DNA of 64,000 bases from a virus. Location of the stretch: IMG/VR virus record IMGVR_UViG_3300029989_000006. The stretch is one strand, 5' to 3'. The position numbers and the translations under genes were made by a program. Positions 2,129-62,949 of this stretch are shown in pieces; the first letter of the stretch is position 1, and every line of letters starts with the position of its first letter. Below the pieces are notes generated by a model, which searched no databases, was not told the DNA's origin, and saw only the letters and a list, made by a program, of their open reading frames with translations.

Positions 2129-2137
2129 AATTTAAAA

Positions 2138-4009
2138 TTAATTAAGTACTTGTGCATTACCATTTACTGATTGTACTGCAGGTGTTGTATTTAAATTGTA
2201 TTGAACATCACTATTTTTAGTAGCTTTAACTGTTGGACCTCTTCCATTAAAACTATCTACAATAACATTAGAGGCAGGTCTATAAGGAATTGCAATCATC
2301 CCTTTATAATAATTACCAAATCAACCTTCATTTGGTTTTGTAGATTTAATTTTAGTTCCAATCTTTTCTGATCAAGTTTTATCTAGATCTGGCATAATTG
2401 CTTTCTCTTCATCTGAAGTTAACTTAGTTACTCAAGGATTATCTTTTCCTAAAGCAGTTCCATCATTTGTATAACCATAAAATACTAAAAATGGTTTAAT
2501 ATGACTATTATCCATAATTACTTTAGTATTTATTCCATTTTTAGTTTCTTCACCAATTTTGATATCAAAATTATGATCTTTAAAAAATCTAGTTGCTTCA
2601 CTAGTAGATCATTTATCCTTATTTGATTCATATGTAGCATAAATCTCTTTAAAGATTTTAAATGCATTATAATCAGGTCTTCCATTATCATCAACTGGCA
2701 TATAAACCTTTGCTGCATCTTTTCCATCATAAACCACATTTTTAAAATCATATGATTCTAATGATTTATTTCCAAAAGAAGCATTATCAAAATCTAAAAA
2801 TTGATTATAACCAATATTTGCTATATTTTGAACTGATGTCATAGGAATTGTTTCATCATTGGGTGTCATTAATGGAAATACTCCACCAATTGCTCCTTTA
2901 AGTAAAACTCCAAGTTTTGCATCATTAAAAGCAAATGTTAAATTCTTACTCATTAATTTATCATTATGAGACATCTGGAAATTATTCATTGGCTTATCAC
3001 TTTGACCTGAAGAACCATCACCAATTTTTACAGGTTTAACTTTTTCAGAATGTGAATCATTAGCACTATTACTAATCATATTCATTAACATAGATCCTGG
3101 TGTATCACCACTTAAAGCAGCTATTACGGATAGTTTATTTTGTGCCTTTTCACCCATAGCTTCCCAAATATATTTTAATCCCTTTTCAACTCTTCCTCTT
3201 TGTGAACTGTTATTCTGTTCAACGGATACATAATCACTATTTACATCTGTAAGTGAATTTAATTTTTGTAATTGTTCAAATTCTTCTTTTGTTGGAGTTG
3301 GACCTTTAATGTTTATTCTAGAAGCATTCATCTGATGTTGAATCTCATTCCATTGTGCTTTACTATAAACTTTATCAGATATTTCTGTATCAGTTCCAAA
3401 ATCCTTTACTAATTTAAGAACATCATCCTTAATTGTTTTTAAACTAACTGCATCATTTGCAACATTAAAAATATCATTTCTTCCAACTAAATTTGGATTT
3501 AATCTTCTTTCGTTTAATAAATCCTGAACTGTTAATAATTGTTGTGTATTTTTATTTTTTTGATAATCAGCTAAGGTAACTCCTTTAACTGTCCCCACTT
3601 TATCCTTAACAAATAATTCTCCTCTACTACCAACTGCAACTTCACTTAATGTACCTTGTTTTGAGGCTTCATTTACTGATTGTGTTCATGCATCTTTATT
3701 TTCTCTTAATGCATTTAAAGTTCCAATTAATTTTATAGAACTTAATCTATTTTTAGGTTGTAAATAAGGATTTGTTTCAGAACCTTCTAACTTTGCAAGT
3801 TCAGATGTAAATTGATTTACTTCATTCGTTAAACCAACATCTTTTTTTATCATTTCTTTATAAAGAGCATCATCTAAAATAGATGATCCAGAATTATCTG
3901 AATCATCTTTTTTAGAAGTTGTTGGCATTTGAGGAGTTGGACTTGAAGGTATATAAGGAGTAAAAGCTACAAATCCACCTCCTTGTTGCAGTTTTGGTAT
4001 AAATTTCAT
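2138..4009 (-). CDS. Virion cargo protein, 623 aa (code 4)
   Basis: Pieces 3686..4009 and 2609..3598 are in frame. Reading TGA as W continues to TAA at 2138. N-terminus MKFIPKLQQGGG. Confidence 0.75.
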
Positions 4010-7000
4010 TATTTAAATACTTTTATTAGTGATTTTTGTAAAAGTTCATTATCTAAAAAAATAGATTTATAAAACATTTCCAATTCTTTTTGACTTTTTT
4101 CATGTTCATTTCTTATTTTTGCCAATTCTATTCTATTATCTTGTGACATACTTCCTCCTTTTTTATAATAAGGAGAATAAGATTGTACCACAGCCTGTTG
4201 TTTTAAAATAGGTGAAGTATATTGTTCCATTAATGTATTTCCATATTTTATTTTGTCTAATAAAGCTTTAGCATAAGCAGATTTTTCAAAAGTCATATTA
4301 GGATCAACATTTTTTGAACTTTTCATATCTTCTGTAAATTTATCACGATATAATTGTTCAATCTCAGGAGAAGATAATTTTGCTAAATATTTCTGCATAC
4401 TAATAAGATTTGGATCATTAATTTTCTGTCGTAAATCAAATGTAGCTTTTTTCTGTTGCCACATTGGTCAAGTCATTGCTTCTGATTTAAGTAAAGTATT
4501 TCTTGCAGTTGTGTCAGCCATAGTTTTATTTGCCATGACTAAAGACATATTTTTTTCAGCATTAGATGATGCAGATTTATTAGCATTTATAATTTGAAGA
4601 TTTCTCTGTCCAATTTGAGTATTCATAGATAATTCCTGTCCTTTTATAGCATCATTTCTTTGAATATCTGCTTGTTGTGCTCTTGATGTTATATCTGCAT
4701 TTTTAGCATTAGCTTGTAATCTTGCACTAATTCCTTTTCCTCAATCATTAGTATTTTCTGCAATGTTTTTACCAATATTATTATTAATTCTATTTTGTTG
4801 TTCTGCTATAATAGTATTTGGTGTACTAGTACGCATATAAACTAATGGACTTGTTTGTAATATTGGAAATTTAGATGCAGCAGTTAATTGATTCTTTAAA
4901 ATGTTTTTATTACCAACCATTGTATTTACAAATTGTGCTAAATTCACAAATCGTGTTGGATCAATGTATGGTTTTGATGTATATGGAATTTCTGCAGGAG
5001 GATTAAGTCCATCTGTATCTAATGTTGTAGTATTAGGTGCTGGTGTTGTTGGTGCAGATGTGTTAATATTAGCAACTTTAGGAGTCATAGGACTTGAAAT
5101 TAATCCAGATGAAACAGTAGGTTTCCCTATTAAATTTGAAACAAAATTATGTACTGTTCCAATTTTTTTATCAACCAATAAACGTTGAACATCAGAAGCA
5201 TTTTTTACTTGATAAGTTCCCTTATTAGCTAAAATTTGTTTATTTAAATCTGATCCATATTTATTAAATCAATTATCATCAATAGATTTTTGATAATCTA
5301 ACCAAGGTTTATTATATTCCTGAGTTTTTGAATCAAACCTAAAATCATTTCCAAATTGTTCCATAGTTCTGAATGGAATTTTTCCTGCATTTTGCATTTT
5401 TAATATTCCTCCTTCAGATTTTTTCTCTACTTTCTTTTTAGAAGTAACTTTATTAACTTTTTCCACTTTTTCTTTAGAAGTTTTTGGTTTAGTAGTTGTT
5501 TTAACAACTTCTTTTTCTTCAGTTGGATTTACAACTACTTTAGTTTTTTCTATTTCAGGAGTTTTTACTGGAAGCTTTTCTTTTAAACTTTGTAGTTTTT
5601 CCACAGCAGATTTTTCATCTGTCACAACTCCTTCACCTAAGTGTTTTCTAGCTAATTTATAATCATTAAAATCTGTGCCTCTATCTCCAGTAACTAATTT
5701 TGGTTCAGTTCCAAGAGTTCATTTTCCAGTAGATTGTCCATAACTATGAGTTAAATTCTTTGTATCAATTTGTGTTAACTCTTCTGGAGTTAAATCCCTT
5801 CCATGAGTTTCTTTATAAGCAGAACTTATTTTATTTTTTAAATTATTTAAACTTGCTTCAGCTTGTTCTTTAGTTGGCTCAGTACCTTTACCTATTAATG
5901 ATTTTCCTCTTTCAATTAAAGATTTAGATGGTTCAGCATCAGGTTTAATAATTCCTTTTACTTGTCCTGTATCAATAAGTTTTCCTTCAGAATCCAAAAG
6001 ATTAAAGGCAGTTTTATCATTTGTAACACTTGCTCTTTCAGCTTGGTTAGTAATAGCTTTCATTCTTCCAGCATTTGCTTTTAAAACATTTGCAAAAGAT
6101 ATACCCATTACTACTTTTTTCCAATCCTCAGGATTAGTATTTTTAACACCATCCTCTTTTCAATCTTTATAAATGTTAACTCCTCCAGAAATTGCCTGTT
6201 GTCCAGCAAATGCACCTAATCCATATTTTCCGGCTGTTGCAACTTTTGCAAAATTAGTTGTTGTAGCTTTTTTAGCTAAGTTTCCTAAAGTTTGACTGCC
6301 TATGATTTTAGTAGTTGCTCCTTTTAATGTCTCAGCTGCTGCAATATGAGAATCAAGTGCTTGTGAAGCTAATTTCATAGTTTCTTCAATTGGTTTTCCT
6401 TCACCAACTAATTTAGTAGCTAATTCAATTGCTTCAGCAGTAGGTTTTTCGGTTTTTAATAATGCAGATGCTCCTTTAGCTTCTTCTAAGGTATTAAAAC
6501 CTGCTTTTGTTAAAGTACCAACGGCCTCTAATTCTTTAGTTCCTTCTATACCTTTACTAATTGCTTCAGCTGTTTTTGTAAGTTTAGCAATCTTAGTTGC
6601 ATCCATTCCTACTTGTCCAGCTTTTATTAAGGATTTAACTCCACCTAATCCGAAGAATGATAATGCCACAAAAGCAGCATCTAGACCTAAATCTAATTTA
6701 TGATTTAATAAACCATTTGCTCCTTCTTCATGTAAAATCTTACCAATATCTGCTCCCATGACAACTCCTGCTCCAATAGAACCTGTTGGTCCTGGAACAA
6801 ATGATGCACCTAATCCTGCAATACCTGCAACATCATAAGCGGTACTTGTAGTATCTTGTCCTGCAAATGTTCTTGCATCTGTTTTATTTACAACTGAAGA
6901 TGGTTCTCCTTTAAGTATTTCTGCTAAAGTATTTTCAGGATTTTCCTGAGATGGTACTACATTCTCTCCTACTACTGGAAGTACTGTTGCTATTGGATGT

Positions 7001-7833
7001 GCTAAATCATACTCTCCTTGAATTTGTTTTTTTCTTTCGTCAGATAATAAAAATCCATTAGGATTAGAACCTGTTCTATTTAATACATCAACTAAACTAT
7101 TTCATGTATTATCATCAATTGGTTTAGTAAAATCAATTTTATCAGTTATAGCTTTTATAGCTTGAGCATGTTCAGTTCCTGTAAATTTATCAATTCCTTT
7201 ATTTGTTTCATAATCTTTTAAATAATCCTCAGCATTTTCTTTAGAATATTTAGCAACTTTTTGTTTGATTACATCATCAGTTGTTCATGATTTTAATGCT
7301 GTATCACGAGATGCATCATTACCACCAAAAACAGTCCCTGTCATATAATCCTCTAAAGATCTAAAAGATTTATCTAATGCATATCTTGGAATAGTTACCT
7401 GAGGATTTACATTTTGTGATGATGTTTTTCAATCATTATATATTGATGCAACTAAAGAATTATATTTCTTTCTTGTAGAATTTTCTTCACCATAATTACT
7501 TCTATCAGGATTGCCAGTATAGGATCCAAATAAATTTTTATTAATTGCATCTCTACTTCCACCTCATTCTGCTTTTTGTAATTCTGGATCAGTTATTTTG
7601 GAACTATCAATACTATATTCGTGTTTAACAGGATCATAAGCATATATATCATTAAAATTACTTAGTTGTGATAATTTTAAGAACTGAGCAGCGGTGTCTC
7701 TAGCTTCTCTTTCACCTTTACTAGTAAAATTTGTACTATCTAATCGTTTTGTCAGATAATCTGCAAAACTTTGTCCTTGTGAAGATATTCCTTCAGTTCA
7801 TCCACCCGCTTTTAATTTTTTGACTAGTGCCAT
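4009..7833 (-). CDS. Large cargo/ejection protein, 1274 aa (code 4), with hydrophobic Gly/Ala-rich segments
   Basis: ATG at 7833 (MALVKKLKAGGW). Five track ORFs (6160..6759, 5719..6108, 5269..5625, 4741..5178, 4009..4464) are in this frame. GIAGLGASFVPGPTG and LDAAFVALSFFGLGG suggest membrane insertion. Confidence 0.75.
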
Positions 7834-7858
7834 GTTTTTACGATTTTTAAATTAAACA

Positions 7859-7892
7859 ATAAAAGGGAGACAGATCTCCCTGCTTCCCTTTT
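7859..7892 (-). terminator. Intrinsic terminator
   Basis: AAAAGGGAAGCAG...CTGTCTCCCTTTT hairpin followed by a T-run. Confidence 0.6.
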
Positions 7893-7900
7893 AAGGTAGG

Positions 7901-8182
7901 CTATCGTCTGCCTATTAATACTAACTTACCTCCTTGACGTTGATAGGTTGGCTGTCCCTGGGCTTCTTGACCTTGTTGACCTTGTTGAGCAGCTCCTTGT
8001 AATAGTTGCATAATCATCTGTGCCAAAGCTGCAGCAGCCTCTGGTCCTAACTGTTGAACAATTTGTGTAGCCATTTGAGCTAATTGTTCTTGTGGATTAC
8101 CTTGTCCACCTTGTCCACCTTGTGCTCCTTGTTCTGAAGCTGCAGGTGCTTCTCCACCTACTTGAAATTTTCTTACTTTCAT
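7901..8182 (-). CDS. Small Gln/Gly/Ala-rich virion protein, 93 aa
   Basis: Intact ORF with KFQVGG at the N-terminus and YQRQGG at the C-terminus. Confidence 0.7.
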   Translation of the reverse strand: MKVRKFQVGGEAPAASEQGAQGGQGGQGNPQEQLAQMATQIVQQLGPEAAAALAQMIMQLLQGAAQQGQQGQEAQGQPTYQRQGGKLVLIGRR

Positions 8183-8187
8183 TTTAA

Positions 8188-8781
8188 TTACTGATTTTTT
8201 GATTGTACATACTCAGGGTTATTAGTTTCCTGAACTTTTAAAAATTTAAATACTCTCTTTCCTAGATTCTTATAATCATTCTCATTATTCGTCGTTGCAG
8301 CTTTCTTTGCAAACTTAATTAATATCTTTGTATTAGCCCGAGAAAAAATTCTCTCTTCACCTTCTAATTCCATTTGAATTTCTCCACCTGAATTTAACAC
8401 TAACATTTTATCTGGTTTAAGTTGTTTATGTTTTGGTTGAAACTCTAATTCATCTCCCACTTTAATACCAGAATTTTCATTAACTTCTAGTACATAATAT
8501 GCATCTTGTTCTGTAAGGAGTTCTTCTGATAATGGTACTCCATGTTGAACAGAGAGTACATTTAATTCATCACTTATAAAAACAATATCTAATGGAATTT
8601 TAGTATCTTTCATTCATATTCCATTTCCTTCCATCATATCATCTTCTGAAAAAAGAAATAACATTCCTTCATCAGGAGCCAATTCAGTTTTTTCTTGTAA
8701 TCCTTGCTCTTTATCTTCATCAGTTTGAGCAAGTTCTACTTTATAATATTTTCCCCCAATTAAAATATTTACTTTTTCCAT
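8188..8781 (-). CDS. DUF192-domain protein, 197 aa (code 4)
   Basis: VELAQT...GL...GMLFLF...W(TGA 8614-8616)MKDTKIPLDIVF...YVLEVN is the DUF192 signature. The conserved W is encoded by TGA. Confidence 0.85.
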
Positions 8782-9020
8782 TCTGATAAAATATTTGAAA
8801 TAACTTCTTTATAGTTCTGTACTAATACCCCGCCTTCTTTATGTTTTCATTTTTTTGCATTTTGTGCAAAAATTGCTCTTTTTCTTGTAAGAGAATTACT
8901 ACTGTGTGTAAGAGTTTCTGTAGATTTACCTGTTCTTTCCTTTAAGGCAGTAAATTTTCCCTTATTTGCAGGATTAATATGTATACTTGTTCCTTCTTTA
9001 GCTTTTATTATATATTTCAT
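8769..9020 (-). CDS. Small basic protein, 83 aa (code 4); absent from the ORF track
   Basis: MKYIIKAKEGTSIHINPANKGKFTALKERTGKSTETLTHSSNSLTRKRAIFAQNAKKW(TGA)KHKEGG...; resembles a small crAss-like virion family as I recall it. Confidence 0.7.
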
Positions 9021-9021
9021 A

Positions 9022-10374
9022 TTATATAGTATTAATAAGATTTGTATTATCCTGAGTATTCTCTAATAGTTCTTCTGTAACAAATTTACCACATTCAATA
9101 CAAATTTGATCTTTTTCTTTTGGATCTTCTGTATCATTAAACTGTGTAAAAAATTCTTCCATTTTATCGGTTGCTTCTTTGTGAAATATAATCTCATTCT
9201 TTTCAATTTCAGCATGTTGCTCTATTTTACCATCTTCCACTGTAATCACTGGAATTCCCTTATTTGTAACTGCACTTCCTAAATCTCCATCATAATGATT
9301 TAAATTTTTATGTAATGCACCTTCGGGAATTACATTCATTTTTCCACCAATAGCATATTTAATAACCTCACCATCCATTGCTTGTCCTTCTTGAGCTTTA
9401 AATATTTTTTTCTTAACCTTATTCTTAAGATTTCTTAATTTTGCAGGATTAATCTTTGTTCCTAATTTTCCTGAGACAATTTGATTTTTATATGAATTGT
9501 TTAATCCAGAAGTTAATGCCTGTCTATTTTTTGAATTGATATCTTGCATAGAATTCATACCTGCTAAGGTATTATTTTTATCTAAATCAATTGCATTAGA
9601 TTTTAAAGCATTAGTTGTATTTATTTTTTCTATAGCAGCTCTTTTATTTGCTAATAATCCTTTTTTATTTCCAAATAATTTACTTATAAAATTAGTTACT
9701 CCCCCAATTTCTGTTGAAGCAATAGTTCTCTCTGCACTATATCCTTTTGTAACTTTAGCAGCTAAATCTGTATCAGAACCTTCTACTTTAGTTTTTGCTA
9801 CTGCATTTAAAATTTTTAAAGGCAATAATGCAGTACTTCCTAAAGTTGAATTCATAATTTTATCACCGGTATTACTTGCATTATTAATTCCACCACCTAT
9901 AGCATTAATACCTTTGTTTAATAATCCTGCAGCTTTCATTGTTCCACCAATAATAGTTCCATAACCTGGAATTGCTGATGCAGCATTTGCTGCCATATCT
10001 CATCCTGCATCAATTCCACCTGTTAATGGATCATCTTGAGTTTTATCTGGAATCAATGAGGATAATAAATTGATTCCTTGTCCTACCAATGCTCCTTTTT
10101 GTTCTTTACCTATTCCTTTTCAAGAACTTTGTAAAGTACTCCCAAGACTCTTTTCAGTATTAGTTTCCCCATATTGATTTTTTTCTCATTGGGTAGAACC
10201 TATTGCAGGTGTTGGTATAAATTTTTGTATCATTTGGTTAAATGAATTTTCTTTAGAGAAATTTTGAAATATTCCAGGAATTCTATTTATTTTAGAATTA
10301 CCTGGAGTATTAAAATTAAGAACTGAATCAGAAGGAAATTCCTCTCATTTTCCTGTATATTGGTTAATTGGCAT
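9022..10374 (-). CDS. Virion cargo protein, 450 aa (code 4)
   Basis: ATG at 10374 is in frame with 9022..9996 across TGAs. C-terminal NVIPEGALH...KGIPVI...AEIEKNEIIF domain. Confidence 0.7.
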
Positions 10375-10385
10375 CGTAGTTAATT

Positions 10386-13300
10386 TTATGCATAACTAAT
10401 TGTAAATAAAGTTCTTAAGGCATTAATAATAGAATGTTTCTTTCCATCATATTTTACTCTTATTTTTATATATTTGTCTCTTATTCTCATTTCACTGATT
10501 TTTGAAAATCTTATTTCACCATCTTTTAAATAAGCATATCTTATTTTAATTGGCTGAATTTGTATATCTCAGGAATCTTCTACATAATGCATATTACCCT
10601 TAGTTCTACCATAATTTACAAAATCCTTTCCATCTTGATTTGATAAAACTCTATCTTCTCCATTTCATGTATCATTTACTAATACAGTATCAGAAGTAAA
10701 ATCTTCTCAAGCAATTGTGTCTAATAGACTTACTGTTTTATCTTTAAGAACAAACGGTAATTTTAAAAATTTAAATGTTGAATAATCGGATGGATTAATT
10801 CAAGTTGGGACTGGAAATTCTGGATGATCTATTAAAATTTGTGAAATAAAGTTAGATAATAAATATCTATACCCATTTAAAACTTTATCTAAAGATGATT
10901 GATATAATACAGTATTAATCTTATATGAACCATTTGATTCTAATGTATAAATAAAATCATCTTTTAATACTGGTGTATAAATTCCATCAATACTTGTAAT
11001 ACTATAATTATAAAGAGGTTCATCATTTAATCAACTAATAACTTCTTTATAAGAATGTCAATCATATCCTTCTCCTACAATTTCAAAATTAAAAGAATCT
11101 GGTTTTGATTTATTTGAAATAATTTTTAAATTATCAAATATTTTCTGAACTCCAGGAACTGCAGCCACAACAAATTCAAATTCGAATGGATGTTGTTCTT
11201 CATATCATACTGTATGTTTTATATTTGCAACCTCATCGGCAGTTCCTGCAAATCCATGTTTATATAATTTATTCTCTCCCTTTGAATGAATTTTAGTATT
11301 TGCAAAAGTATAAAAAATATTATTAATATTTTCCGAAAATTCCGGAAATCATGTATTTCTAGTTACTCAATGGTTTAAAAGCTCATTTCAACATAAATGT
11401 CATTGTTGTTTATTATAACTAAAAACAAATAATACATCTTGCTTAAAGGCATTATAATGAGATTTAATACTATAATTTTCAGGTTTATTTAAAACATCTG
11501 TAACTCTTAAATTTATATTATCATTTAAAAATTTCTGAATTTTCATATCTGAAATAGTTTCAAACTTATTTCCATTGGTTCTTCAAATTCTTTTACCAAT
11601 AGTATCTAAACCATAAATATATTTAGGTGTAAAAACTATTGAATTAGCTCAAGTTGTTCCAAAAGTATTAGATAATACCTTTGGATTTTTTGGTAATACA
11701 GTTTCAGTATTAATATAAACATTTTCACCCTGAGCATTCATCATCATAGCACGTTCATTAACTGGAATCATTAAAACCCCATGTTCCATAACTGCTATCA
11801 ATGTTCCATACCATTCTACTAAAGAAACTAGGGCACCATACTCCATTGTATAGTCTTGAAAATTCTGAGCCTTAAATACTCTATTGCCATTTTTAAATGC
11901 ACCTTCTCTAAGTAATTCTGAATAGTAAATTCTATTTGTAAAATTAGTTTTAATAAATGGAACATCTGGAATTTCAAAGTAATATCTATCTGATAATGAA
12001 TGATTTATTCCATTGTTCATAACAGTAGACTCTGGTAATTTATTAGTAATTTTTGCTTCTTGTAATGGATGAAAACTGCGTTTCATTTTATGTATTGCCT
12101 CTTCTTGTGGTCTAGAAAAATCAATATCTCTCATTGCAAGATTTATATTGCTACAAATTTTAAATGTTACTCAATGTCCTAAACCTACTGCATTTACATC
12201 TGGTCTATTAATCTTTTCAGAACCAAATGTTCCATTAGCTTCTGAATATTTTTTGAATTTTTTACCATCTGGTAAACATAATCAGCTTAATGCAACCGAA
12301 CCATCAGTTTTCTCATCAAGTCCACCATATGTAAATAAAGATAATAATTTTTTATATTCAAATTCAGTTCCTCCTGGTAAAGTACTTATTTCACCAGTAC
12401 TATCTCCATTATTTGCCCTAATTAATCCCTGCAAAGCTCCCCCATTATTTATTGATATATGTTTAGAAGTTCTAACTTTAAAGTTCTTATATCAAGTATA
12501 AGGATCAACTATTTGATTATTTGTTGGTAATTCTGGATCTATAAAATTTCATAAGACTCTATGTGTATATGTGCTTATAAAACAATCCCCTCTATAATGA
12601 GTTGGAGATCCTCATTGCCCAATTTTATCTCATGTTAGTCTGTCACCAATTGCCATGAATGGAGAAGAATCATTATATCTAATTCTAAAATAATTTTTTC
12701 AATTACTGAAATCATAATCTTTTTGAAATATATTATAATGTTGTCCAAAGATAAGATTATTTGCACTACTTCCAAGAAAAGTATTAAATCCTCCTCTTAT
12801 TTTTGTTGTACTATCTGATCATGTATTTTCTGATGCAGTTGTTTTATCTAATGAATTAATATTACCTAAAATTGGATCTTCAAATTTTCAAGCAATTGTT
12901 GGATCACCAGCTTTAGAACAAAATTTACTATTATCACCATTATTAATCAATTCAATTTCTGGTTCAACTAATAATAAATTTGTTGTAATAGTATCAGATG
13001 AAATGACATTATCCTTAATTAAATCTCCTAAGTTAAATAATGTTTGAGTATTTGCTCCATCATTAAAAATCTTTCCACCAGAACTATATTTAAACTTCTT
13101 TAAAATAAATTCTGAGGAATTAAAATAATTATTAAATATATCAGTTCTTACACAAGCCTCTGGACATAATAAGGCATTATTCTGTATATCTACAGGTTGT
13201 ACCTCAAATAAACTCCTTCCTAAAATTGGATAATTATGTAAATCTTTCTTTAAAAATGATTCTGAGAAAAATTTTCTTTGATTAGTTCCATTATTATTAT

Positions 13301-53140: not shown

Positions 53141-53141
53141 G

Positions 53142-53214
53142 CGCCTTCACTTCGATTCGAACGAAGATCTAATAATTTTGAAGATTATTGTTTTAGCCGT
53201 TAAACTACGAAGAC
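53142..53214 (-). tRNA. Opal suppressor tRNA, anticodon UCA (presumed Trp)
   Basis: GTCTTCG TA GTTT-AACGGCTA-AAAC A ATAAT-CTTCAAA-ATTAT TAGAT CTTCG-TTCGAAT-CGAAG TGAAGGC G. Full cloverleaf, discriminator G, CCA not encoded. Confidence 0.92.
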
Positions 53215-55092: not shown

Positions 55093-55195
55093 TTTCCATT
55101 GTTGGTTTACCATACAATATAGCATCAGTAGTTGTTCTAACAAAATCTTCAAACAATTCCATCTCTACTTTACTAATCCATACTCCATTATTCAT
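55058..55195 (-). CDS. Small acidic protein, 45 aa
   Basis: MNNGVWISKVEMELFEDFVR..., coupled to the Rep-like gene by TAATG. Confidence 0.4.
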   Translation of the reverse strand: MNNGVWISKVEMELFEDFVRTTTDAILYGKPTMENDEEDVCSTSS

Positions 55196-55947
55196 TATAA
55201 TACAACCTCTACATATTTATTTGGATGCTTCAATCTATCCAATTCTTCTTTAATCTGCTTATTTTCTTTTAAAACAATATCTAACTGCAATGCCATCGTA
55301 TCAATTTTTAAATCTGTCTTATCTAATCTATCTTCATGATTCTGTAACTTAAATACAATCGCTTGTTCTAACTCATTTAAATGAAATATCTTCTCATTTA
55401 TCATTAATCCAGTATCTTTATCTTTAACACCTGTCCTAATTATATCCAAATATCCCTTCTCTGCTAAACTCTTATTATGCTTCACAACTGTATTATAAGA
55501 CAAATTAATAATCTCCGCTAACTTCGTATCTGTATACGTAAGCTTTCCAAACCCCTCTAAATCCTTAAACATATATTGTTGAGTCGCAACTATATACGCC
55601 TTTTCATTAGCAGTTAGATTCTTCATTTCTAAAAACTCCAACGAGAACGGTTCAAAATTCTTATAAGGATTAAAATGATAAACATTTTTTCTCCCATCCT
55701 TTGTAACCTCAATATATCCCAATTCCTTTAAAGTCTTAATTGATTTCAACACCGTAGGTTTAGAACTACTCGATAACTCCATTATTGTTTCTATTGATGG
55801 AAAACACGTCTTCGTCACCTTATTCTGATGTTTCTTTATACATACATATATCAACAAATCCTTAGGTGATAAATCCGTACCTCTTGTCATATCATTTGGC
55901 AACTGAACATGCTGTAACGATTCTTTTTTCTGATTTTCTTCTTCCAT
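55195..55947 (-). CDS. Winged-HTH replication initiator-like protein, 250 aa
   Basis: LIYVCI...CFPSIETI...SKPTVLKSIKTLKELGYI plus a second HTH-like unit and a C-terminal coiled coil. Confidence 0.65.
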   Translation of the reverse strand: MEEENQKKESLQHVQLPNDMTRGTDLSPKDLLIYVCIKKHQNKVTKTCFPSIETIMELSSSSKPTVLKSIKTLKELGYIEVTKDGRKNVYHFNPYKNFEPFSLEFLEMKNLTANEKAYIVATQQYMFKDLEGFGKLTYTDTKLAEIINLSYNTVVKHNKSLAEKGYLDIIRTGVKDKDTGLMINEKIFHLNELEQAIVFKLQNHEDRLDKTDLKIDTMALQLDIVLKENKQIKEELDRLKHPNKYVEVVL

Positions 55948-55968
55948 ATTTTTAATTAATTTAATATA

Positions 55969-55976
55969 CAAAGGTA
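55969..55976 (-). promoter_or_regulatory. -7 box (TACCTTTG) for the Rep-like gene
   Basis: Matches TAnnTTTG; same 8-mer as at 53466. Confidence 0.55.
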
Positions 55977-56343: not shown

Positions 56344-57003
56344 TTATTCTTTAAATTTCCAAATAAATCCATAGATAGTTTTTCTACTACTACCACAACA
56401 TTCTCCAATTTTATTAGACTTAGTTTTTTGAACTAATCCTTCAATAGATCTTGCAGCATCTGCAATTGAATTAAACTCCTCAATTAAATTATCCTCCAAA
56501 TCATATTTCTGAACCTTCTTCTTTTTATCATTCTGTGATTCTGACAACTTCTTTTTAGTTTCTTCTGATTTAACATATCCAGTCCTTCCGAGAGATAAAT
56601 TATCTAATTGTTCTTGAGTTTTAGGAATAGTTTTTAAATGTTCCTTCATCTCTTCTGTATGTTTATATCCAATATTACCTTCTCCTCCCTTATTTAGATT
56701 ATACCCAAATTCAGACATATCTGTCTTATATAATTTTATATATCTTTTTTCTAACTTATTCAACACCCTCTTAAGTTTTTCTTTATCTGGTGTTGGTTTA
56801 AATTTAATTATAACCTCATATCTAAAATTCTCAAATCCATATTTTCTAATAGCATTTCCAAAATACGTCTGACTTTTTATATCCTCATTTTTATGATGAC
56901 TTTTTCTACTACTCTCATTAATCGTCTGTCCAACATACCTCTTTCCACTTGGGGAAATATATACATAAATTAATCCAATTCTAAACTCCTTTACACTAAC
57001 CAT
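56344..57003 (-). CDS. GIY-YIG homing endonuclease with NUMOD-type domains, 219 aa
   Basis: GLIY...KRYVGQT...GYNL..GG; C-terminal KYDLEDNLIEEFNSIADA...YGFIWKF. Confidence 0.88.
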   Translation of the reverse strand: MVSVKEFRIGLIYVYISPSGKRYVGQTINESSRKSHHKNEDIKSQTYFGNAIRKYGFENFRYEVIIKFKPTPDKEKLKRVLNKLEKRYIKLYKTDMSEFGYNLNKGGEGNIGYKHTEEMKEHLKTIPKTQEQLDNLSLGRTGYVKSEETKKKLSESQNDKKKKVQKYDLEDNLIEEFNSIADAARSIEGLVQKTKSNKIGECCGSSRKTIYGFIWKFKE

Positions 57004-57052
57004 AATTTCTAATTTTTAAATTTTTACTATATTTTATCTATTTTATCTGATA

Positions 57053-57060
57053 CAAATTTA
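57053..57060 (-). promoter_or_regulatory. -7 box candidate (TAAATTTG)
   Basis: Matches TAnnTTTG, 50 nt upstream of the GIY-YIG gene. Confidence 0.4.
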
Positions 57061-57294
57061 CAAAATAAATTTTATTAAAATTCTATAATACTATCCCATG
57101 TTAAATTAAAGACAAGAGACCATTCTAATTCCATTATTTTCATATATTATGAACAAGAATCTTAAAAAAATTTTTTTATTTATATTTCAGAAGCCCAGGG
57201 CCTGTCTCCCAACTTACCCCCAGCCTTAAAGGGCGAGAAACCCTAACAAAAAACAATACACACACATATTTTAAAAACAATTAAAAAAATCACA

Positions 57295-57804
57295 ATGGAA
57301 AAGTTAAACATTGAACAATTTGAAGCAGAATTAAAAACTGCCGGTATGGATGAAGCCAAAATTTCCGCAGACATTCAAGCAAATTATTTACCAGAAAGTG
57401 GTACGTTTGAATCCTACGAAATTGTCAACGCGAATCAACCGACTGTTCACGTCCGTATGCTCACAACTAACGGCGGTTCAATTAGTCTTAATGGTTTGCG
57501 TGGTGTTGCTCACTTTGGCGACAAAGAGAGTATCACATTAGGCAAAATTGAGAAGGCTGGCTCAACTCTGAATGGCAAATTTGCGATGAAAAGTGTGACT
57601 AACATTAACCCACAACTTGGGGGAAAAATTGCAAAAGTCGTTTCCAATTTACTTGGACGTGATTTCAAAGCAGTTGCAACTCCGGGTTATGTTCTCCGCA
57701 CAAAGTTAGGTGCAGACCTGAAACCTGTTGGTTACGATACCGAAGCGAAGGCCAAAGAAGCCATCGTATCCAAAAATTTCTACAAAGTTGAAATTATCTA
57801 TTAA
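57295..57804 (+). CDS. First early-region protein, 169 aa
   Basis: Intact ORF with GC-richer codons, an A/C-rich leader and its own terminator. Confidence 0.8.
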   Translation: MEKLNIEQFEAELKTAGMDEAKISADIQANYLPESGTFESYEIVNANQPTVHVRMLTTNGGSISLNGLRGVAHFGDKESITLGKIEKAGSTLNGKFAMKSVTNINPQLGGKIAKVVSNLLGRDFKAVATPGYVLRTKLGADLKPVGYDTEAKAKEAIVSKNFYKVEIIY

Positions 57805-57832
57805 GGTAATCCAAATTTGTAAATTAAAAAAT

Positions 57833-57859
57833 AAGGGAGAGCAATCTCCTTTGTTTTTT
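57833..57859 (+). terminator. Intrinsic terminator
   Basis: AAGGGAGA-GCAA-TCTCCTTT followed by GTTTTTT. Confidence 0.75.
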
Positions 57860-57899
57860 AAAAAGTTTCTATTATTAAGTATAATCACTAAATTTCATT

Positions 57900-58181
57900 A
57901 TGGAATATGCAATTATTGGCATCCCTGAAAAAAACCAAAATTGGGATGAGTCTAAGATTAAAACTATTCGTGGAAAATTTGAAAACAATGAATTACTTGA
58001 TTTTGAAACGAATAAAATTATGTCCATAACTACATACGGTATAATGTATGATCAGATTAATGGACGTAAAGGTTGGTTTAATATCGCACCATGGATTGGT
58101 GATGATATGGTAATCTTCCAAGCTATCGTGGTTGATGAGTTTCCAAAGCATGTTTGGAATAAATTAGATCATATTAGATAG
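57900..58181 (+). CDS. Hypothetical protein, 93 aa
   Basis: Intact ORF; its 4 W are all TGG. Confidence 0.65.
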   Translation: MEYAIIGIPEKNQNWDESKIKTIRGKFENNELLDFETNKIMSITTYGIMYDQINGRKGWFNIAPWIGDDMVIFQAIVVDEFPKHVWNKLDHIR

Positions 58182-58185
58182 CAAC

Positions 58186-58598
58186 TGCACAGGAGGTATA
58201 ACGCATTTCTATTCATTAGTAATAGGAAGCACCTTAGAAGTGCATTTTTAAAAAATTTATCGAAGGCAGACATGTAACGGGATGAACTGCCTTCTCCACA
58301 CTATCCAAAAATTACCTGTTAGACAAGCATCTAAATACTAAAAAATCTAATAGTATATAGTATTGAATAAAATGGTGTAGTTTTTGGAATGGATTGTATT
58401 GTGGATAATATTGAGGATGAAAGCCTGCGAGGTAAAGGATGGAAGTCTCGGGTTAGGGCGTTTAAGCATGAATATGCTCCATCACGTGGATGACCACATG
58501 AAGTAAAGATAAGTGTTTGAGACAGAGGGTTATTGAAGTCTCGTTTTTGGCCAGTAAATCCTACTCTTTCCGTAAGTTTCGGAATTGGGGAGAGTAGG
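58186..58598 (+). ncRNA. Structured non-coding block 1 (tandem helical domains)
   Basis: TGCAC/GTGCA, GAAGGCAG/CTGCCTTC, TCCACA/TGTGGA and CCTACTCTTTCC/GGGAGAGTAGG stems; no ORF. Confidence 0.5.
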
Positions 58599-58630
58599 TA
58601 TTTTATGAAAAAACTAAAAATCTAAGATGT

Positions 58631-58882
58631 ATGGATAAAATAGTTGTTGGACCAGTAAAATGTTCCGATGAAAATTATACGGTAAAAGCTGTTGTATCAG
58701 GTGATAGCTTAGAGATTGTAACCGGTAGTAGCCTGAGGATAACTTCTCAGAGACCATATAAGGAAGAGATTGTTCCGTTGTCTATTAAGAATCTCAAGAG
58801 GTTGTTGAAAACAATTGGATCGAGTGAGGATAGACGAATGGCCCAGGGAAAGATTGAAGGGTTTTTGGGGTATTCAATTTAA
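58631..58882 (+). CDS. Hypothetical protein, 83 aa
   Basis: Intact ORF with an A-rich leader. Confidence 0.6.
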   Translation: MDKIVVGPVKCSDENYTVKAVVSGDSLEIVTGSSLRITSQRPYKEEIVPLSIKNLKRLLKTIGSSEDRRMAQGKIEGFLGYSI

Positions 58883-58885
58883 TAG

Positions 58886-59143
58886 ATGTTAGTTAGGAAG
58901 AGAGATTTTAAGATTATGGGGATAACAGAAAATGGTAATGCGTTTCTGGAGGCTTTCCCGAGTTTGCCAGATGTTGATCAAGTGTTGATCAGTAGAGGGG
59001 CAATCAATGTGCTGTTTTTATTGGGTGATACGATAACAAATGATACGAAAGTAAAGTTGAAGTATCGGGAGTTTATAAGGGATAATCGAAAGTTTATTTA
59101 TATAAATTCTATAGAACCAATGTTGAAAATAAAATCAGTCTGA
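58886..59143 (+). CDS. Hypothetical protein, 85 aa (TGA stop; 120 aa if read through)
   Basis: Intact ORF ending in TGA and followed by a hairpin. Confidence 0.55.
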   Translation: MLVRKRDFKIMGITENGNAFLEAFPSLPDVDQVLISRGAINVLFLLGDTITNDTKVKLKYREFIRDNRKFIYINSIEPMLKIKSV

Positions 59144-59176
59144 AAGATTGATTTGGGGAGAGTGAGTTCTCCTCAA

Positions 59177-59259
59177 GGATGAATGTTACAGCCCTCAGGA
59201 TTTGAGATAATCCATGGCTCATCCGTAACGCGTGATTTAATTACGTAACTGATGTAACG
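59177..59259 (+). ncRNA. Candidate HDV-like ribozyme with an expanded L3
   Basis: P1 GGATGA/TCATCC, P2 TGTTACA/TGTAACG, P3 GCC/GGC, P4 GCGTGAT/ATTACGT and J4/2 CTGA (CNRA), in nested double-pseudoknot order. Confidence 0.45.
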
Positions 59260-60030
59260 AGGCAGGTTTCTTGTCTTTAGGATAAATCGTGAATTCATAA
59301 GCGATGAAAGTGATGGTGTAGTTAAAAGCGAAACTATTGCGATGATGAAAGTCATTCTGTATGAAAACCAATTTAATATCTATAGTATGGTGTAGTGGGA
59401 ACTCGGAAGAGTGAAGCGATAGTATTATAGACTTGGGTTTGACTAACTTGAGTTGAGTGGTAACACAATAAGAATTAAATTGATTCGTTTCTCAAAATCA
59501 TTGTCGTGATGAGGGAGATGTTTATTGTTAGATTGTATGCCCTATTTTATCATTCCCAAATGATGAAGCTCCTGGGGAGGAGAAGTAGAAATAGTAGGGC
59601 AGTGTACAGTTGATGAAGTGAGTATGTTTGACAGCAGAAAACAGGGAGGCGTTGTATCTAAACCATTCAAAAGATGGCATGATGACAAACGCAATCACGT
59701 CTACCAAAGAAGTCCTTTTAAAAAATTTAAAATTCGTTAGAAACGAAATTCAAAAATTAATAAAAGTAAAATCCAAAAAGTATTGCGTCTGATGTATGAA
59801 AATACAGTTATCCATTTGTGAAATGATGGGATGTGGACCTCGGAAGGGAAAGCATTATTTGAAATGAGTAATCAATTAGTAGATGCAGGGATGTATCGTG
59901 TTCTTCCAAGAAGCTAAGGATGAAAGGAGTAGGATATATAGTATGTCAGAGGAGTTGCGGGAACTTAAAAATCCGTCTGTATGTTGTCTACCTATAGAAG
60001 TATAGGTGTGTTGTAATCCGAAAGGAGTAT
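59260..60030 (+). ncRNA. Structured non-coding block 2
   Basis: TCTATAGTAT/GTATTATAGA, ACTTGGGTT/AACTTGAGT, TGCCCTATT/AGTAGGGCA and TTGCGTCT/AGATGCAG stems with G-U pairs; no + strand ORF of 60 aa or more. Confidence 0.45.
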
Positions 60031-60166
60031 AAATGGCAATAGAAAACGTCAGGACTCAGCGTTTTAAAAAATACCACGGTCGTATTGGTTCTCTTCTAAT
60101 AACAGAGGATCTATCCAGTAAATTGCTGGCGTTTGTCAGAGTTCAGATAACTGATAAAAAAATATT

Positions 60167-60640
60167 AATGGAGGGTAATAGCCATGTACTATTATTGCAG
60201 TGCTTACGTAATTGGGATATGGCCCGTGTTTACTCAGGCTATACTGCAGAAAACTCCATTTAAAAATTAACATGTCCTGCAACTCAAGAAAAAGTCAAGA
60301 GGTATTGGCGACAGCACGGACGTAAAATCGTTGAGGATGGTTTAAAATACTGTCGTAGCAGCTGTACTTGAGGCATGTTTGAATATATTATTATTAGTAA
60401 ACGGTAATATGTTCTAATCCCATAAGTGGACACAGTGGATATAATAGTCCACTAAAATATTAGGATGATTTGCAAAACATCTCGTACTTGATCCAGCAAT
60501 CCGGAAATTCGGACCGAGCTAGAGTGAGACTGCAAAACGATAACAGAAGAAATAATAAACTCTTTTGTAAATCATCTACAATACAATAGAAAAGACATGA
60601 TATTTGTCGTATTCCTGGGCATGAAGACAAACTGCTTTTT
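60167..60640 (+). ncRNA. Structured non-coding block 3
   Basis: AATGGAG/CTCCATT, AACATGTC/GGCATGTT, GCGACAG/CTGTCGT, GAATATATTATT/GGTAATATGTTC and GGATGATTTGCAAAA/TTTTGTAAATCATCT stems. Confidence 0.5.
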
Positions 60641-60678
60641 AGTGCTAAATCTAATTATTTACATAAAAACCTAAACCA

Positions 60679-60876
60679 ATGATTGAGTATTTTCAAATTG
60701 AAATGATTGATTATAAACTCGACAAAATGGTTGAGTTTACAACACGTGGTAAATTAACAAGAGCCATAGTTAATGGCAAATCAACTGCTTGTATTACTAA
60801 TGAGTATGATGTGCCTATTATTATAGCAGCACCATCAGTGCTCATTCGTGATTCTACTGGTAAATTGTTGTATTAA
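60679..60876 (+). CDS. Hypothetical protein, 65 aa
   Basis: Intact ORF with an A-rich leader. Confidence 0.55.
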   Translation: MIEYFQIEMIDYKLDKMVEFTTRGKLTRAIVNGKSTACITNEYDVPIIIAAPSVLIRDSTGKLLY

Positions 60877-60882
60877 AATATT

Positions 60883-61537
60883 AGCAGAGATAAAGACAGG
60901 TGCATGAAATAGTACAGTAGAACTGGCTATCAGAGTAATGCATCACTCTGCTTTAAAATATTCATCCCTAGAAGAACAGGATGATACCGAATCGCGACGG
61001 TATAGTCAGATACGATTATTGTTTACGAATGCATGCGTAACAATGAGGATATTTGATGGCTTCAACAAGAGATATTTGTTAAGTAAATAAGCGAAGTAAT
61101 GATATCTCCATTATTAGCAAACTATGAAACCTGGTATAACACTAAAAGATTTGGCCAGCTATATTCCTCAGGATATTCCTGTGGATTGAGGTATGCCAGT
61201 CTAGTTCCCAAGTGTATGGAAAGTCTTTTGGAGGGAATTTATGTAATTACAAATTAGGTCTGGTGTTGTATCATCGGCCACCCCAAACTCAGTCCTAGTG
61301 CTTGTATAAGCAATGGACAGTCTGCCGCTACCTGAAATACTGGTTGCCTTAAATGGCTCTTCGCGGCTCAAAATGTTGTTTGACGAACTTCATACCTTAT
61401 AGGTTAAATGTCAACTGTAAACTCTCCCAAGATCTCAGACGTCGAACTACTAGTTTAGTTACCGAATGTTGAGGGAGAGTTTATTTAAAAATATACACTG
61501 ACTTTTTGTCAGTAGGGGAATGTGAGTTGATTCTCTA
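60883..61537 (+). ncRNA. Structured non-coding block 4
   Basis: AGCAGAG/CTCTGCT, TCATCC/GGATGA, TACCG/CGGTA, GCCGC/GCGGC, AAACTCTCC/GGAGAGTTT and ACTGAC/GTCAGT stems. Confidence 0.5.
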
Positions 61538-61772
61538 TTTCTCCACAAGGGTTTGGTTTCTAACTAAAGAAAGAAAAGATTATCAAGTTAAACCTATAAA
61601 GGTTAAAAAAGAAGAAACATCCAAAGACATTTGGCAAAAACAAAAAAAGAAATAATCTTGTAATATCAGGATTATTTCTTATACTCGTAAAAGTTCCGAG
61701 TATAAAAAGAAGAATAGGAATGCTAGTATATATGTTGAAATACATTTAAAGCTCAAACTCAAACATCTAAAA

Positions 61773-62126
61773 ATGAATAAATTATTTGTTATATTATTAA
61801 TCTTACTAGCTATATCATGTAGAAGTAAGCCAGATCCAGAGATATCTTATATAGATATGGATCTTAGAATTGTATTAATCAATTCACAATCCATTTTGTC
61901 TCAGAATAAATTCCATAAGCCTCAGTTATGTAATATTGTATTATTTGAGACACTAACAACTGATCCTAAGTTATATTTTGAATATAATAATTGTGATATA
62001 GATTTTCGGTCTATATTAATTAATACTAAATGGTTATACAATCATTGCCCAGGAGATACTGTTCATTTTAACTATATTAAGAAATCAAGATTCTTTACAA
62101 TTAAACCTGAATTAATTCCTAAATAA
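61773..62126 (+). CDS. Lipoprotein, 117 aa
   Basis: MNKLFVILLILLAISC signal peptide with a lipobox. Confidence 0.7.
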   Translation: MNKLFVILLILLAISCRSKPDPEISYIDMDLRIVLINSQSILSQNKFHKPQLCNIVLFETLTTDPKLYFEYNNCDIDFRSILINTKWLYNHCPGDTVHFNYIKKSRFFTIKPELIPK

Positions 62127-62136
62127 TATTAATCAT

Positions 62137-62949
62137 ATGTGTAAATTCTTTTCATTTATTACTAAAGGAGATGGAATACCCCTCTTCATTGATACAGATG
62201 CTCGTATAAAACTTAAGCATGAAAGTTCTGATTTTGATTCCCATAGCTTTATTGCAGCATATCACAATTTGGATGATGATCTGGTTAATAAGTATGAATA
62301 CAATCCTTGGAAGAGAGTCTTTGTAATTGATACGATGAATGCTTTTAGCAATATAGGAGAAAAATTAAGAGATAATGAAGAGGCAAATATTTGGGCTGAT
62401 TCTTATGATTTTTCTAAAATTATTGCTTCGGGTTATTATGATCTTGATGATGCATCTTTTCCTATAGAAGGAATAAAACTTCCTGAGGTATTTTATGGTA
62501 ATATACTCCTAAATGATATGAAAGACTTTAAGAAGGTTACTCTTCCCAGAATTATGAATGCATTAAGATTTGAGGATCAAGATCTTACAGATGTGATTTT
62601 TCCGGAAGAAGTAGATCAATTAATAGTTAGACATTGTAATCTTAGAAATGTTACTTTTCCAAAGAAAATGGGAACACTAAAAGCTATAGGTAGCACTTTT
62701 TCATCAAATGTCATATTACCTAAGGGAATAGATTTTGTGGATGTTGAAGGAGCTGATATTAATGGTATGATTTTTCCTGAATATGTAAGACATTTGGATA
62801 TTCAAAAATGTGATGTTACTGGTGCAAAATTACCAAAGCAAGTAAATCGTCTATATAGTTCTCAGGCTTATACTAGAGCTGAAACAAAATTGTTTTTACC
62901 TGAAATTGTAGTTGATATATGTAAAAACAGTACAATTATAAATAATTAA
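62137..62949 (+). CDS. LRR-like repeat protein, 270 aa
   Basis: About 19-aa repeats (xxxxLP/FPxxVxxL) after an MCKFFS...DSH N-terminal domain. Confidence 0.65.
   Translation: MCKFFSFITKGDGIPLFIDTDARIKLKHESSDFDSHSFIAAYHNLDDDLVNKYEYNPWKRVFVIDTMNAFSNIGEKLRDNEEANIWADSYDFSKIIASGYYDLDDASFPIEGIKLPEVFYGNILLNDMKDFKKVTLPRIMNALRFEDQDLTDVIFPEEVDQLIVRHCNLRNVTFPKKMGTLKAIGSTFSSNVILPKGIDFVDVEGADINGMIFPEYVRHLDIQKCDVTGAKLPKQVNRLYSSQAYTRAETKLFLPEIVVDICKNSTIINN

Follow-up and report, generated by a model that had tools for sequence, protein, structure and literature searches.

A mosaic of small protein genes and conserved folded RNAs in an ORF-poor stretch of a large crAss-like phage

What fills several kilobases of phage DNA that hold hardly any credible gene? 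Few known phages are as abundant as the crAss-like ones, and the question is raised by positions 58186-61537 of a 64,000-nucleotide (nt) stretch, hereafter the window, which spans positions 6868-70867 of the 172,188-bp IMG/VR virus record IMGVR_UViG_3300029989_000006. The genes of the window include a match to Crass_capsid, the Crassvirus-type major capsid protein, and ARAGORN detects a UGA-reading suppressor tRNA at 53141-53214; the source, an uncultured virus, is therefore a large crAss-like phage in which TGA is recoded in part of the genes. The span lies near the start of a long + strand arm and had originally been predicted to be dominated by a chain of structured non-coding RNA domains, transcribed together and processed into separate RNAs. 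We find that the span is real and is a mosaic of micro-genes and conserved folded RNAs. The reading that we prefer, and hold to be slightly better than even, is that of an accessory island peculiar to this lineage, located where the + arm begins and composed of short protein and RNA cassettes.

The shortage of credible open reading frames (ORFs) in the original prediction was confirmed. Credible coding sequence adds up to only about 0.7-0.9 kb of 58186-61537: genetic code 11 yields only four + strand ORFs of at least 60 amino acids (aa), encoding 83, 85, 76 and 65 aa, and ORFs of at least 90 aa under code 4 reach a coverage of 0.39, the genome average being 0.85, which places the span within the lowest 1.6% of windows. 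Stop-codon recoding was rejected as the cause of this poverty, as code 4, TAG read as glutamine and all single and double reassignments produced no long frames. Neither ARAGORN nor Rfam found a tRNA or transfer-messenger RNA (tmRNA) in the island. With Rfam 15 at gathering score, the sole match in the window was a tRNA at 53142-53214 and the span was empty; the best matches within 57000-62200 had E-values of 0.56-4.4, far below gathering, with no ribozyme at E ≤ 5, and the Rfam search that had been proposed thus assigned no family in the span. The domains had also been described as non-identical, and a repeat search indeed returned no repeat families; when CRISPR-like arrays and type III toxin-antitoxin RNA repeats were sought, nothing beyond short two-copy matches at chance level appeared in the span. 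GGGAGAG, considered as a common stem motif, is locally enriched and was discarded for want of a genome-wide signal. Pfam and PHROGs returned nothing for ORF169, ORF93, ORF83, ORF85, ORF76 or ORF65, and the ESM Atlas gave only sub-threshold leads, for ORF83 and ORF65.

To separate coding from non-coding constraint, and to examine pairing, the window was compared with the sole diverged lineage, represented by contigs L023 and L024, which occurs in the samples JGI 3300045973 and SRR35489367 and is about 85% identical over 57713-59260. Ten other contigs bearing ORF83 (L013-L022), as well as L029, are uninformative because they are 100% identical across the region. Substitutions pile up at third codon positions in ORF83, ORF85, ORF93 and ORF65, and we accordingly read these four as real protein genes, all of them orphans; counts below are given for first/second/third codon positions.

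57900-58181, + strand: ORF93, a real small protein gene, just left of the span; 4/4/21 substitutions against L023.
58631-58882, + strand: ORF83, a real orphan gene; 5/11/26 substitutions, 81% aa identity in L023.
58886-59143, + strand: ORF85, a real orphan gene; 8/7/19 substitutions.
60033-60263, + strand: ORF76, which overlaps conserved RNA helices.
60679-60876, + strand: ORF65, a real small protein gene; homologues 63% identical in L030 and 69% identical in L031.

An exhaustive HMMER search of 1.84 billion representatives found the L023 copy as the only homologue of ORF85. For ORF65, the substitutions are 22/13/35 against L030, whose homologue has 65 aa, and 23/15/36 against L031, whose 82-aa product matches over 59 residues. 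ORF76 is a doubtful gene: its codon score is coding-like, about 29 codons are kept in L023, and the conserved part, counted by eye, has about 7/8/4 substitutions, with no excess at third positions.

The remaining sequence includes three non-coding segments, S2, S3 and 60075-60330, which are under stronger constraint than silent positions and conserve their base pairs.

58380-58612, + strand: S2, about 230 nt of conserved non-coding RNA, following a promoter-like block that carries a TATAGTAT box.
59150-59260, + strand: S3, beginning a few bases past the ORF85 stop codon.
59155-59174, + strand: 7-bp hairpin just upstream of a putative cleavage site; all pairs kept in L023, with one wobble-to-Watson-Crick change.
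59177-59259, + strand: S3 core, 83 nt, a nested double pseudoknot with an HDV-like (hepatitis delta virus-like) layout.
59177-82 / 59219-24, + strand: helix P1 of S3.
59184-90 / 59253-59, + strand: helix P2 of S3.
59191-93 / 59216-18, + strand: helix P3 of S3.
59198-202 / 59209-13, + strand: hairpin within the L3 loop of S3.
59230-36 / 59240-46, + strand: helix P4 of S3.
60075-60330, + strand: conserved helices flanking a 105-nt indel; 33 of 33 pairs kept, two of them compensatory.

S2 diverges from L023 by 9.5%, against 22-31% for third codon positions of the flanking genes. Its substitutions fall 7/8/7 over the codon positions in every frame and it carries 1-nt indels. All 73 pairs of its consensus fold are kept, with three compensatory and nine wobble changes, and none of 100 column shuffles reached three or more compensatory pairs. 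This pattern points to purifying selection on base pairing and not on coding. A 13-bp hairpin and then UAUUUUAU close S2, and the ORF83 start lies 20 nt further on. S3 diverges by 11%, with a third-position excess in no frame. A six-helix model of 59155-59259 forms 35 of 35 pairs in both the window and L023 (slid controls, 34-53%), with three compensatory changes, in P1, P3 and P4, a number reached by 2 of 100 column shuffles, and four wobble changes, in P2, the L3 hairpin, P4 and the upstream hairpin; the consensus-energy z-score against column shuffles is -4.25. Within 60075-60330, the hairpin at 60115-60129 contains two compensatory transversion pairs, A-U to U-A and G-C to C-G. The covariation expected by the original prediction was thus found in the one relative available, with three compensatory pairs in S2, three in S3 and two in 60075-60330. 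Its chain of RNA domains holds for these constrained segments, but ORF83, ORF85 and ORF65 in the same span are coding.

The lineage-specific character of the island emerges from how abruptly its parts come and go. Homology to L023/L024 stops at 59260, the 3' end of S3; beyond it, 1002 nt of the window face about 219 nt in L023 before the alignment resumes at 60262. Within this interval, most of 59263-60074 (812 nt) is missing or replaced in L023, which has about 140 nt there (its own positions ~1543-1678), and the 105 nt equivalent to 60154-60258 are likewise lacking. Contigs L002 and L003, whose Rep is 72% identical, share with the window a promoter block at 57005-57239 and a second block at 61680-61765. 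The gap between the two blocks is only about 1.1 kb in L002/L003, and the island is therefore lineage-specific. The homologues of ORF65 in L030 and L031 also sit in different neighbourhoods. Other relatives were sought by scanning IMG/VR with the 169-aa protein, S2, S3 and the two conserved blocks, which returned only L002/L003; the one scan of JGI metagenomes turned up a single identical copy besides three chance matches that were unrelated, blastn of the island against the phage collection gave nothing, and protein libraries gave no additional relatives.

61680-61765, + strand: conserved promoter/leader block closing the island, upstream of a 117-aa gene; two copies in L002/L003, one in L030.

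This block spans about 80 nt around the core AAGAATAGGAMTGCTAGTAT. It is duplicated in L003 (98-180 and 746-826) and occurs in L030 at 608-715, about 280 nt upstream of the ORF65 homologue. This distribution of a block retained across diverged phages indicates cassette shuffling between phages.

Recurrent transcription signals would divide the island further, several of them in its left end and in its ORF-poor stretches.

57836-57861, + strand: putative intrinsic terminator of the upstream 169-aa gene, with a GC-rich stem, T-run and A-run; read from the sequence, recovered as an Lfold hairpin and conserved in L023.
58229-58296, + strand: terminator-like hairpin, then TTTTTAAAAAA, then a second, 8-bp hairpin at 58262-58296.
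58300-58375, + strand: promoter-like block, conserved at 84.5% identity in L023; its TATAGTAT box at 58356 reads TATAGTGT there.
59263-60074, + strand: strain-specific stretch; TATAGTAT boxes lie at 59381 and 59937, and 59385-59725, about 340 nt, forms a unit free of ORFs; no ATG-initiated ORF above 40 aa.
60877-61495, + strand: ORF-poor right part, with a terminator-like hairpin at ~60925-60955 and a long hairpin (61415-61483) that leads into UUAUUUAAAAAU; only ORFs of 39-52 aa, with weak codon scores.

In the 58262-58296 hairpin, 8 of 8 pairs are kept in L023, with one G-C to A-U double change and two wobble changes by eye. Within 1.6 kb of the + strand there are three TATAGTAT boxes (58356, 59381 and 59937), against 21 on both strands of the whole genome (344 kb); at the places of the first and the third, L023 has TATAGTGT. 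The TTTAAAA-type linkers previously described between domains are present at all five cited positions, and the motif is enriched, with eight occurrences against 1.2 ± 1.05 in dinucleotide shuffles, a count reached in 0 of 300. It follows hairpins at 58247, 60063, 60952 and 61484, and at 57855 just outside, as a terminator-like U-tract then A-tract at about half of the sites; the 57836-57861 terminator is of the same TTTTTAAAAA type as these linkers.

These signals bear on the proposal that the whole span is one polycistronic non-coding precursor made right after entry and cut into decoy or regulatory RNAs. Everything lies on one strand with a uniform G>C skew, a ribozyme-shaped element stands at a module boundary, and the crAss-like phage phi14:2 produces abundant early long non-coding RNAs, all of which would suit such a precursor. 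Yet at least three protein genes are embedded in it, terminator-like hairpins lie inside it and promoter-like boxes recur along it, and a single candidate processing site was found. The recurrent TATAGTAT boxes and terminator-like hairpins make separate cassettes likelier than one processed precursor, which we regard as decidedly unlikely; what survives of the processed array is the ribozyme-shaped boundary element.

The cassette organization that we favour would work as follows. Transcription units would start at the TATAGTAT-type boxes at 58356, 59381 and 59937 and mostly end at hairpin-plus-U-tract terminators, the TTTAAAA linkers being the U-tract/A-tract of such terminators together with AT-rich spacers. 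S2 would be either the folded 5' leader of the ORF83/ORF85 message or a stand-alone small RNA with its own terminator. S3 could plausibly cut the transcript at 59176/59177, so that the message would keep a protective 3' hairpin. The ORF-free units at 59385-59725 and 60961-61495 would be stand-alone small RNAs.

Several observations weigh against this organization. The covariation compares two sequences, because there is a single diverged relative, and the shuffle controls of the tool itself are weak (64 of 500 and 82 of 500). For about 2 kb (59263-60074, 60331-60678 and 60877-61680), no relative offers a comparison. No convincing hairpin precedes the TTTAAAA at 59717 or 60259, and the promoter role of TATAGTAT and the terminator roles are putative ones, read from motifs and hairpins. 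A loose HDV descriptor matches about 69 loci in this AT-rich genome, and the topology of S3 alone is therefore not significant. Some genes of the + arm are TGA-recoded. Lastly, thermodynamic support is weak: segment folding z-scores are -0.43 (S2), -1.51 (59263-60074), -2.06 and -1.64 (60877-61495), and 150-nt windows average about -1 on the + strand and about -0.85 on the - strand. The back-to-back hairpins and junctions of the original prediction are thus not borne out by energy, the folding test that it had proposed giving values only slightly better than shuffles. Lfold coverage at z < -3 is 0.50 in the span against a window mean of 0.365, with 59144-60032 below average (0.28) and 60877-61772 at 0.83. 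Nor do G-U pairs that work only on the + strand, taken earlier as a sign of RNA-level selection, discriminate: the + strand is the better folder throughout, the gap between + and - folding energy is larger in verified ORFs (-57 versus -39, -56 versus -32) than in S2 or S3, and the + strand advantage is due to the G-rich, C-poor composition.

Folding near shuffles would suit the view that the ORF-free sequence is mostly fast-evolving spacer, untranslated regions and decayed accessory genes, with only promoters, terminators and a few small genes functional. The large indels between close relatives, the absence of the island from L002/L003 and the apparent truncation of ORF76 in L023 fit as well, as does the left-end segment S1, which diverges at the neutral rate (27%; two compensatory pairs by Alifold). 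However, divergence in S2 and S3 is two to three times slower than at silent sites, with pairs preserved through compensatory changes, and tblastn with the neighbouring genes of relatives found no gene remnants in the gaps. We consider this view rather unlikely.

Recoding on the + arm raises another possibility, namely that the gaps are very small or TGA-recoded genes, such as 60465-60674 and 61353-61655 under code 4 and 60938-61090 and 61099-61257 under code 11. Since some + arm genes are TGA-recoded, the two code-4 ORFs may be real, and the UGA suppressor tRNA, together with + arm genes that require code 4, speaks for them. The ORF at 60465-60674, open under code 4 only with two in-frame TGA codons, stops 4 nt before ORF65 and lies behind a hairpin element of which another copy stands upstream of a gene at 65338; 60938-61090 and 61099-61257 adjoin, and 61506-61655 has a coding-like codon score. 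Against this, code-4 frames in S2 and S3 are incompatible with the substitution pattern and with indels that shift the frame, TGA makes up 3-4% of codons in code-4 ORFs, about the chance rate for the composition, and the codon-usage scores of most mini-ORF candidates are no better than those of frames of the non-coding S2. We judge hidden genes to be a very unlikely explanation of the gaps.

60416-60461, + strand: hairpin element preceding the code-4-only ORF 60465-60674; paralogue upstream of the gene at 65338.

Over 35 nt this element is 88.6% identical to 65289-65323, with one compensated pair. The two-copy element reads GGACACAGTRGATATAA...AGTCYRCTAAAATATT, and about 25 nt separate its second copy (65276-65323) from a T4_Y16D-family gene downstream.

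Is S3, at the cassette boundary, a ribozyme? The helices P1-P4 can form in canonical order in both the window and L023, CUGA lies directly 5' of the P2 3' strand, and this C-N-R-A is kept in L023. Members of the HDV family have a short L3, a two-pair P1.1 and a G1-U wobble closing P1. S3 has instead an L3 of 22 nt with an internal 5-bp hairpin, a single G (59225) available for P1.1, hence one pair at best, and G59177 paired with C59224. In HDV-like ribozymes the catalytic cytosine is the first position of J4/2 (PMC10879173); J4/2 of S3 is AACUGA, in which C59249 is the third base. The S3 covariance model found no paralogue in its own genome and, in L005, one weak match (18.5 bits) that lacks P1 and P4 and is unconvincing. 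S3 resembles HDV-like ribozymes on paper and is a candidate member of the family. We see it as a possibility, albeit an unlikely one, that S3 is an active HDV-like ribozyme, a new variant with a hairpin-bearing L3 that sets the 3' end of a small-protein message, in an island of exchangeable cassettes for phage small RNAs that act on the host early, for example against its defences.

The + arm, at whose start the island lies, diverges from two - strand genes.

55195-55971, - strand: Rep/DnaD-like initiator gene, on the other side of the divergence from the + arm.
56344-57003, - strand: homing-endonuclease gene (PHROG 314, E 2.5e-29), between the Rep-like gene and the divergent promoter region.

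L003 has an ORF of similar size (223 aa) at the position of the homing-endonuclease gene. GC content is 35-39% over 57.25-61.75 kb (35-38% within the span itself) against about 27% around, with a G>C skew. The first + gene after the divergent promoter (57295-57804) has about 39% GC, markedly above its own genome, and its counterparts in two related phages likewise stand out from theirs (L003 1371-1895 on the - strand, 40-43%; L006 9000-9500 on the - strand, 52.6%); the three products, of 166-174 aa, are barely alignable, and a strong terminator follows the gene in both the window and L003. Upstream of it lies a C-rich element at 57196-57245. Its core, CCCCAGCNTTAAAGGGCGAGAA, recurs unchanged in the distant relative L002/L003, with one occurrence per genome; the element could be a promoter, a regulatory site or a small structured leader. 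Further along the + arm, beyond the window (~65.8-104 kb, L033/L034), 23 tRNA matches, all on the + strand and clustered, explain most of the other ORF-poor gaps; the island is the largest ORF-poor stretch of the arm and, unlike these gaps, has no tRNA. Sequence around the tRNA clusters, for instance at 66121-66974 and 71114-72044, is not accounted for by the tRNAs. Several stretches of the + arm, for instance 68660-69760, 78340-79350 and 92936-94347, have long ORFs only under code 4; TGA recoding therefore extends beyond the - strand structural arm.

The role of long non-coding early transcripts in crAss-like phages has been in question since phi14:2, and the island adds a case delimited to the base. 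It yields a leader or small RNA of 230 nt and a ribozyme-shaped pseudoknot of 83 nt at a cassette boundary, both under measurable purifying selection. S2 and S3, as delimited, are defined constructs for cleavage assays and expression mapping. More broadly, RNA islands can be mosaics with real micro-genes, and wholesale annotation as coding or as non-coding is therefore unsuitable for them.

Among known elements, phage ‘moron’ cassettes are promoter-gene-terminator units inserted between conserved genes. Like them, the island is made of self-contained units, present or absent between close relatives and of a composition unlike the surrounding genome; in contrast to them, several units here seem to carry RNA and not protein, and the promoters and terminators are predicted ones.

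With HDV-like and theta ribozymes (PMC10879173), S3 shares the helix order P1-P2-P3-L3-P3'-P1'-P4-P2', a G at the putative cleavage site, C-N-R-A before the P2 3' strand, and a non-coding location in sense to the neighbouring genes of a stop-recoding phage. Such ribozymes occur in non-coding regions of stop-recoding phages, and 493 non-tRNA HDV-like matches of as yet unknown function have been reported from phage non-coding regions (PMC10879173). S3 differs from theta ribozymes in having a P4 and in not standing beside a tRNA, and from HDV-like ribozymes in its 22-nt, hairpin-bearing L3, the third-place C of J4/2, the G1-C pair and the lack of an HDV-type match in Rfam.

The closest published parallel is offered by the crAss-like Cellulophaga phage phi14:2, in which a pair of abundant early long non-coding RNAs of unknown function, persisting late, comes from ORF-free gaps, the g004-g006 intergenic regions (bioRxiv 10.1101/2020.03.07.982082). 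Expression was shown there, whereas for the island it is a prediction; the S3 model has no match in positions 1-12000 of the phi14:2 genome (NC_021806), in line with the blastn search against the phage collection. ARAGORN places a tmRNA gene (4031-4500, + strand, tag GSSVQKLAMVA*) inside the g004-g006 gap reported as a long non-coding RNA region, a gene that is absent from the Rfam results at gathering score. Part of the phi14:2 gap is thus a tmRNA gene, whereas the island has neither tRNA nor tmRNA. The island is also interleaved with verified small protein genes. Both phages are crAss-like, and in both, kilobase-scale ORF-free stretches lie on one strand among small genes without assigned function.

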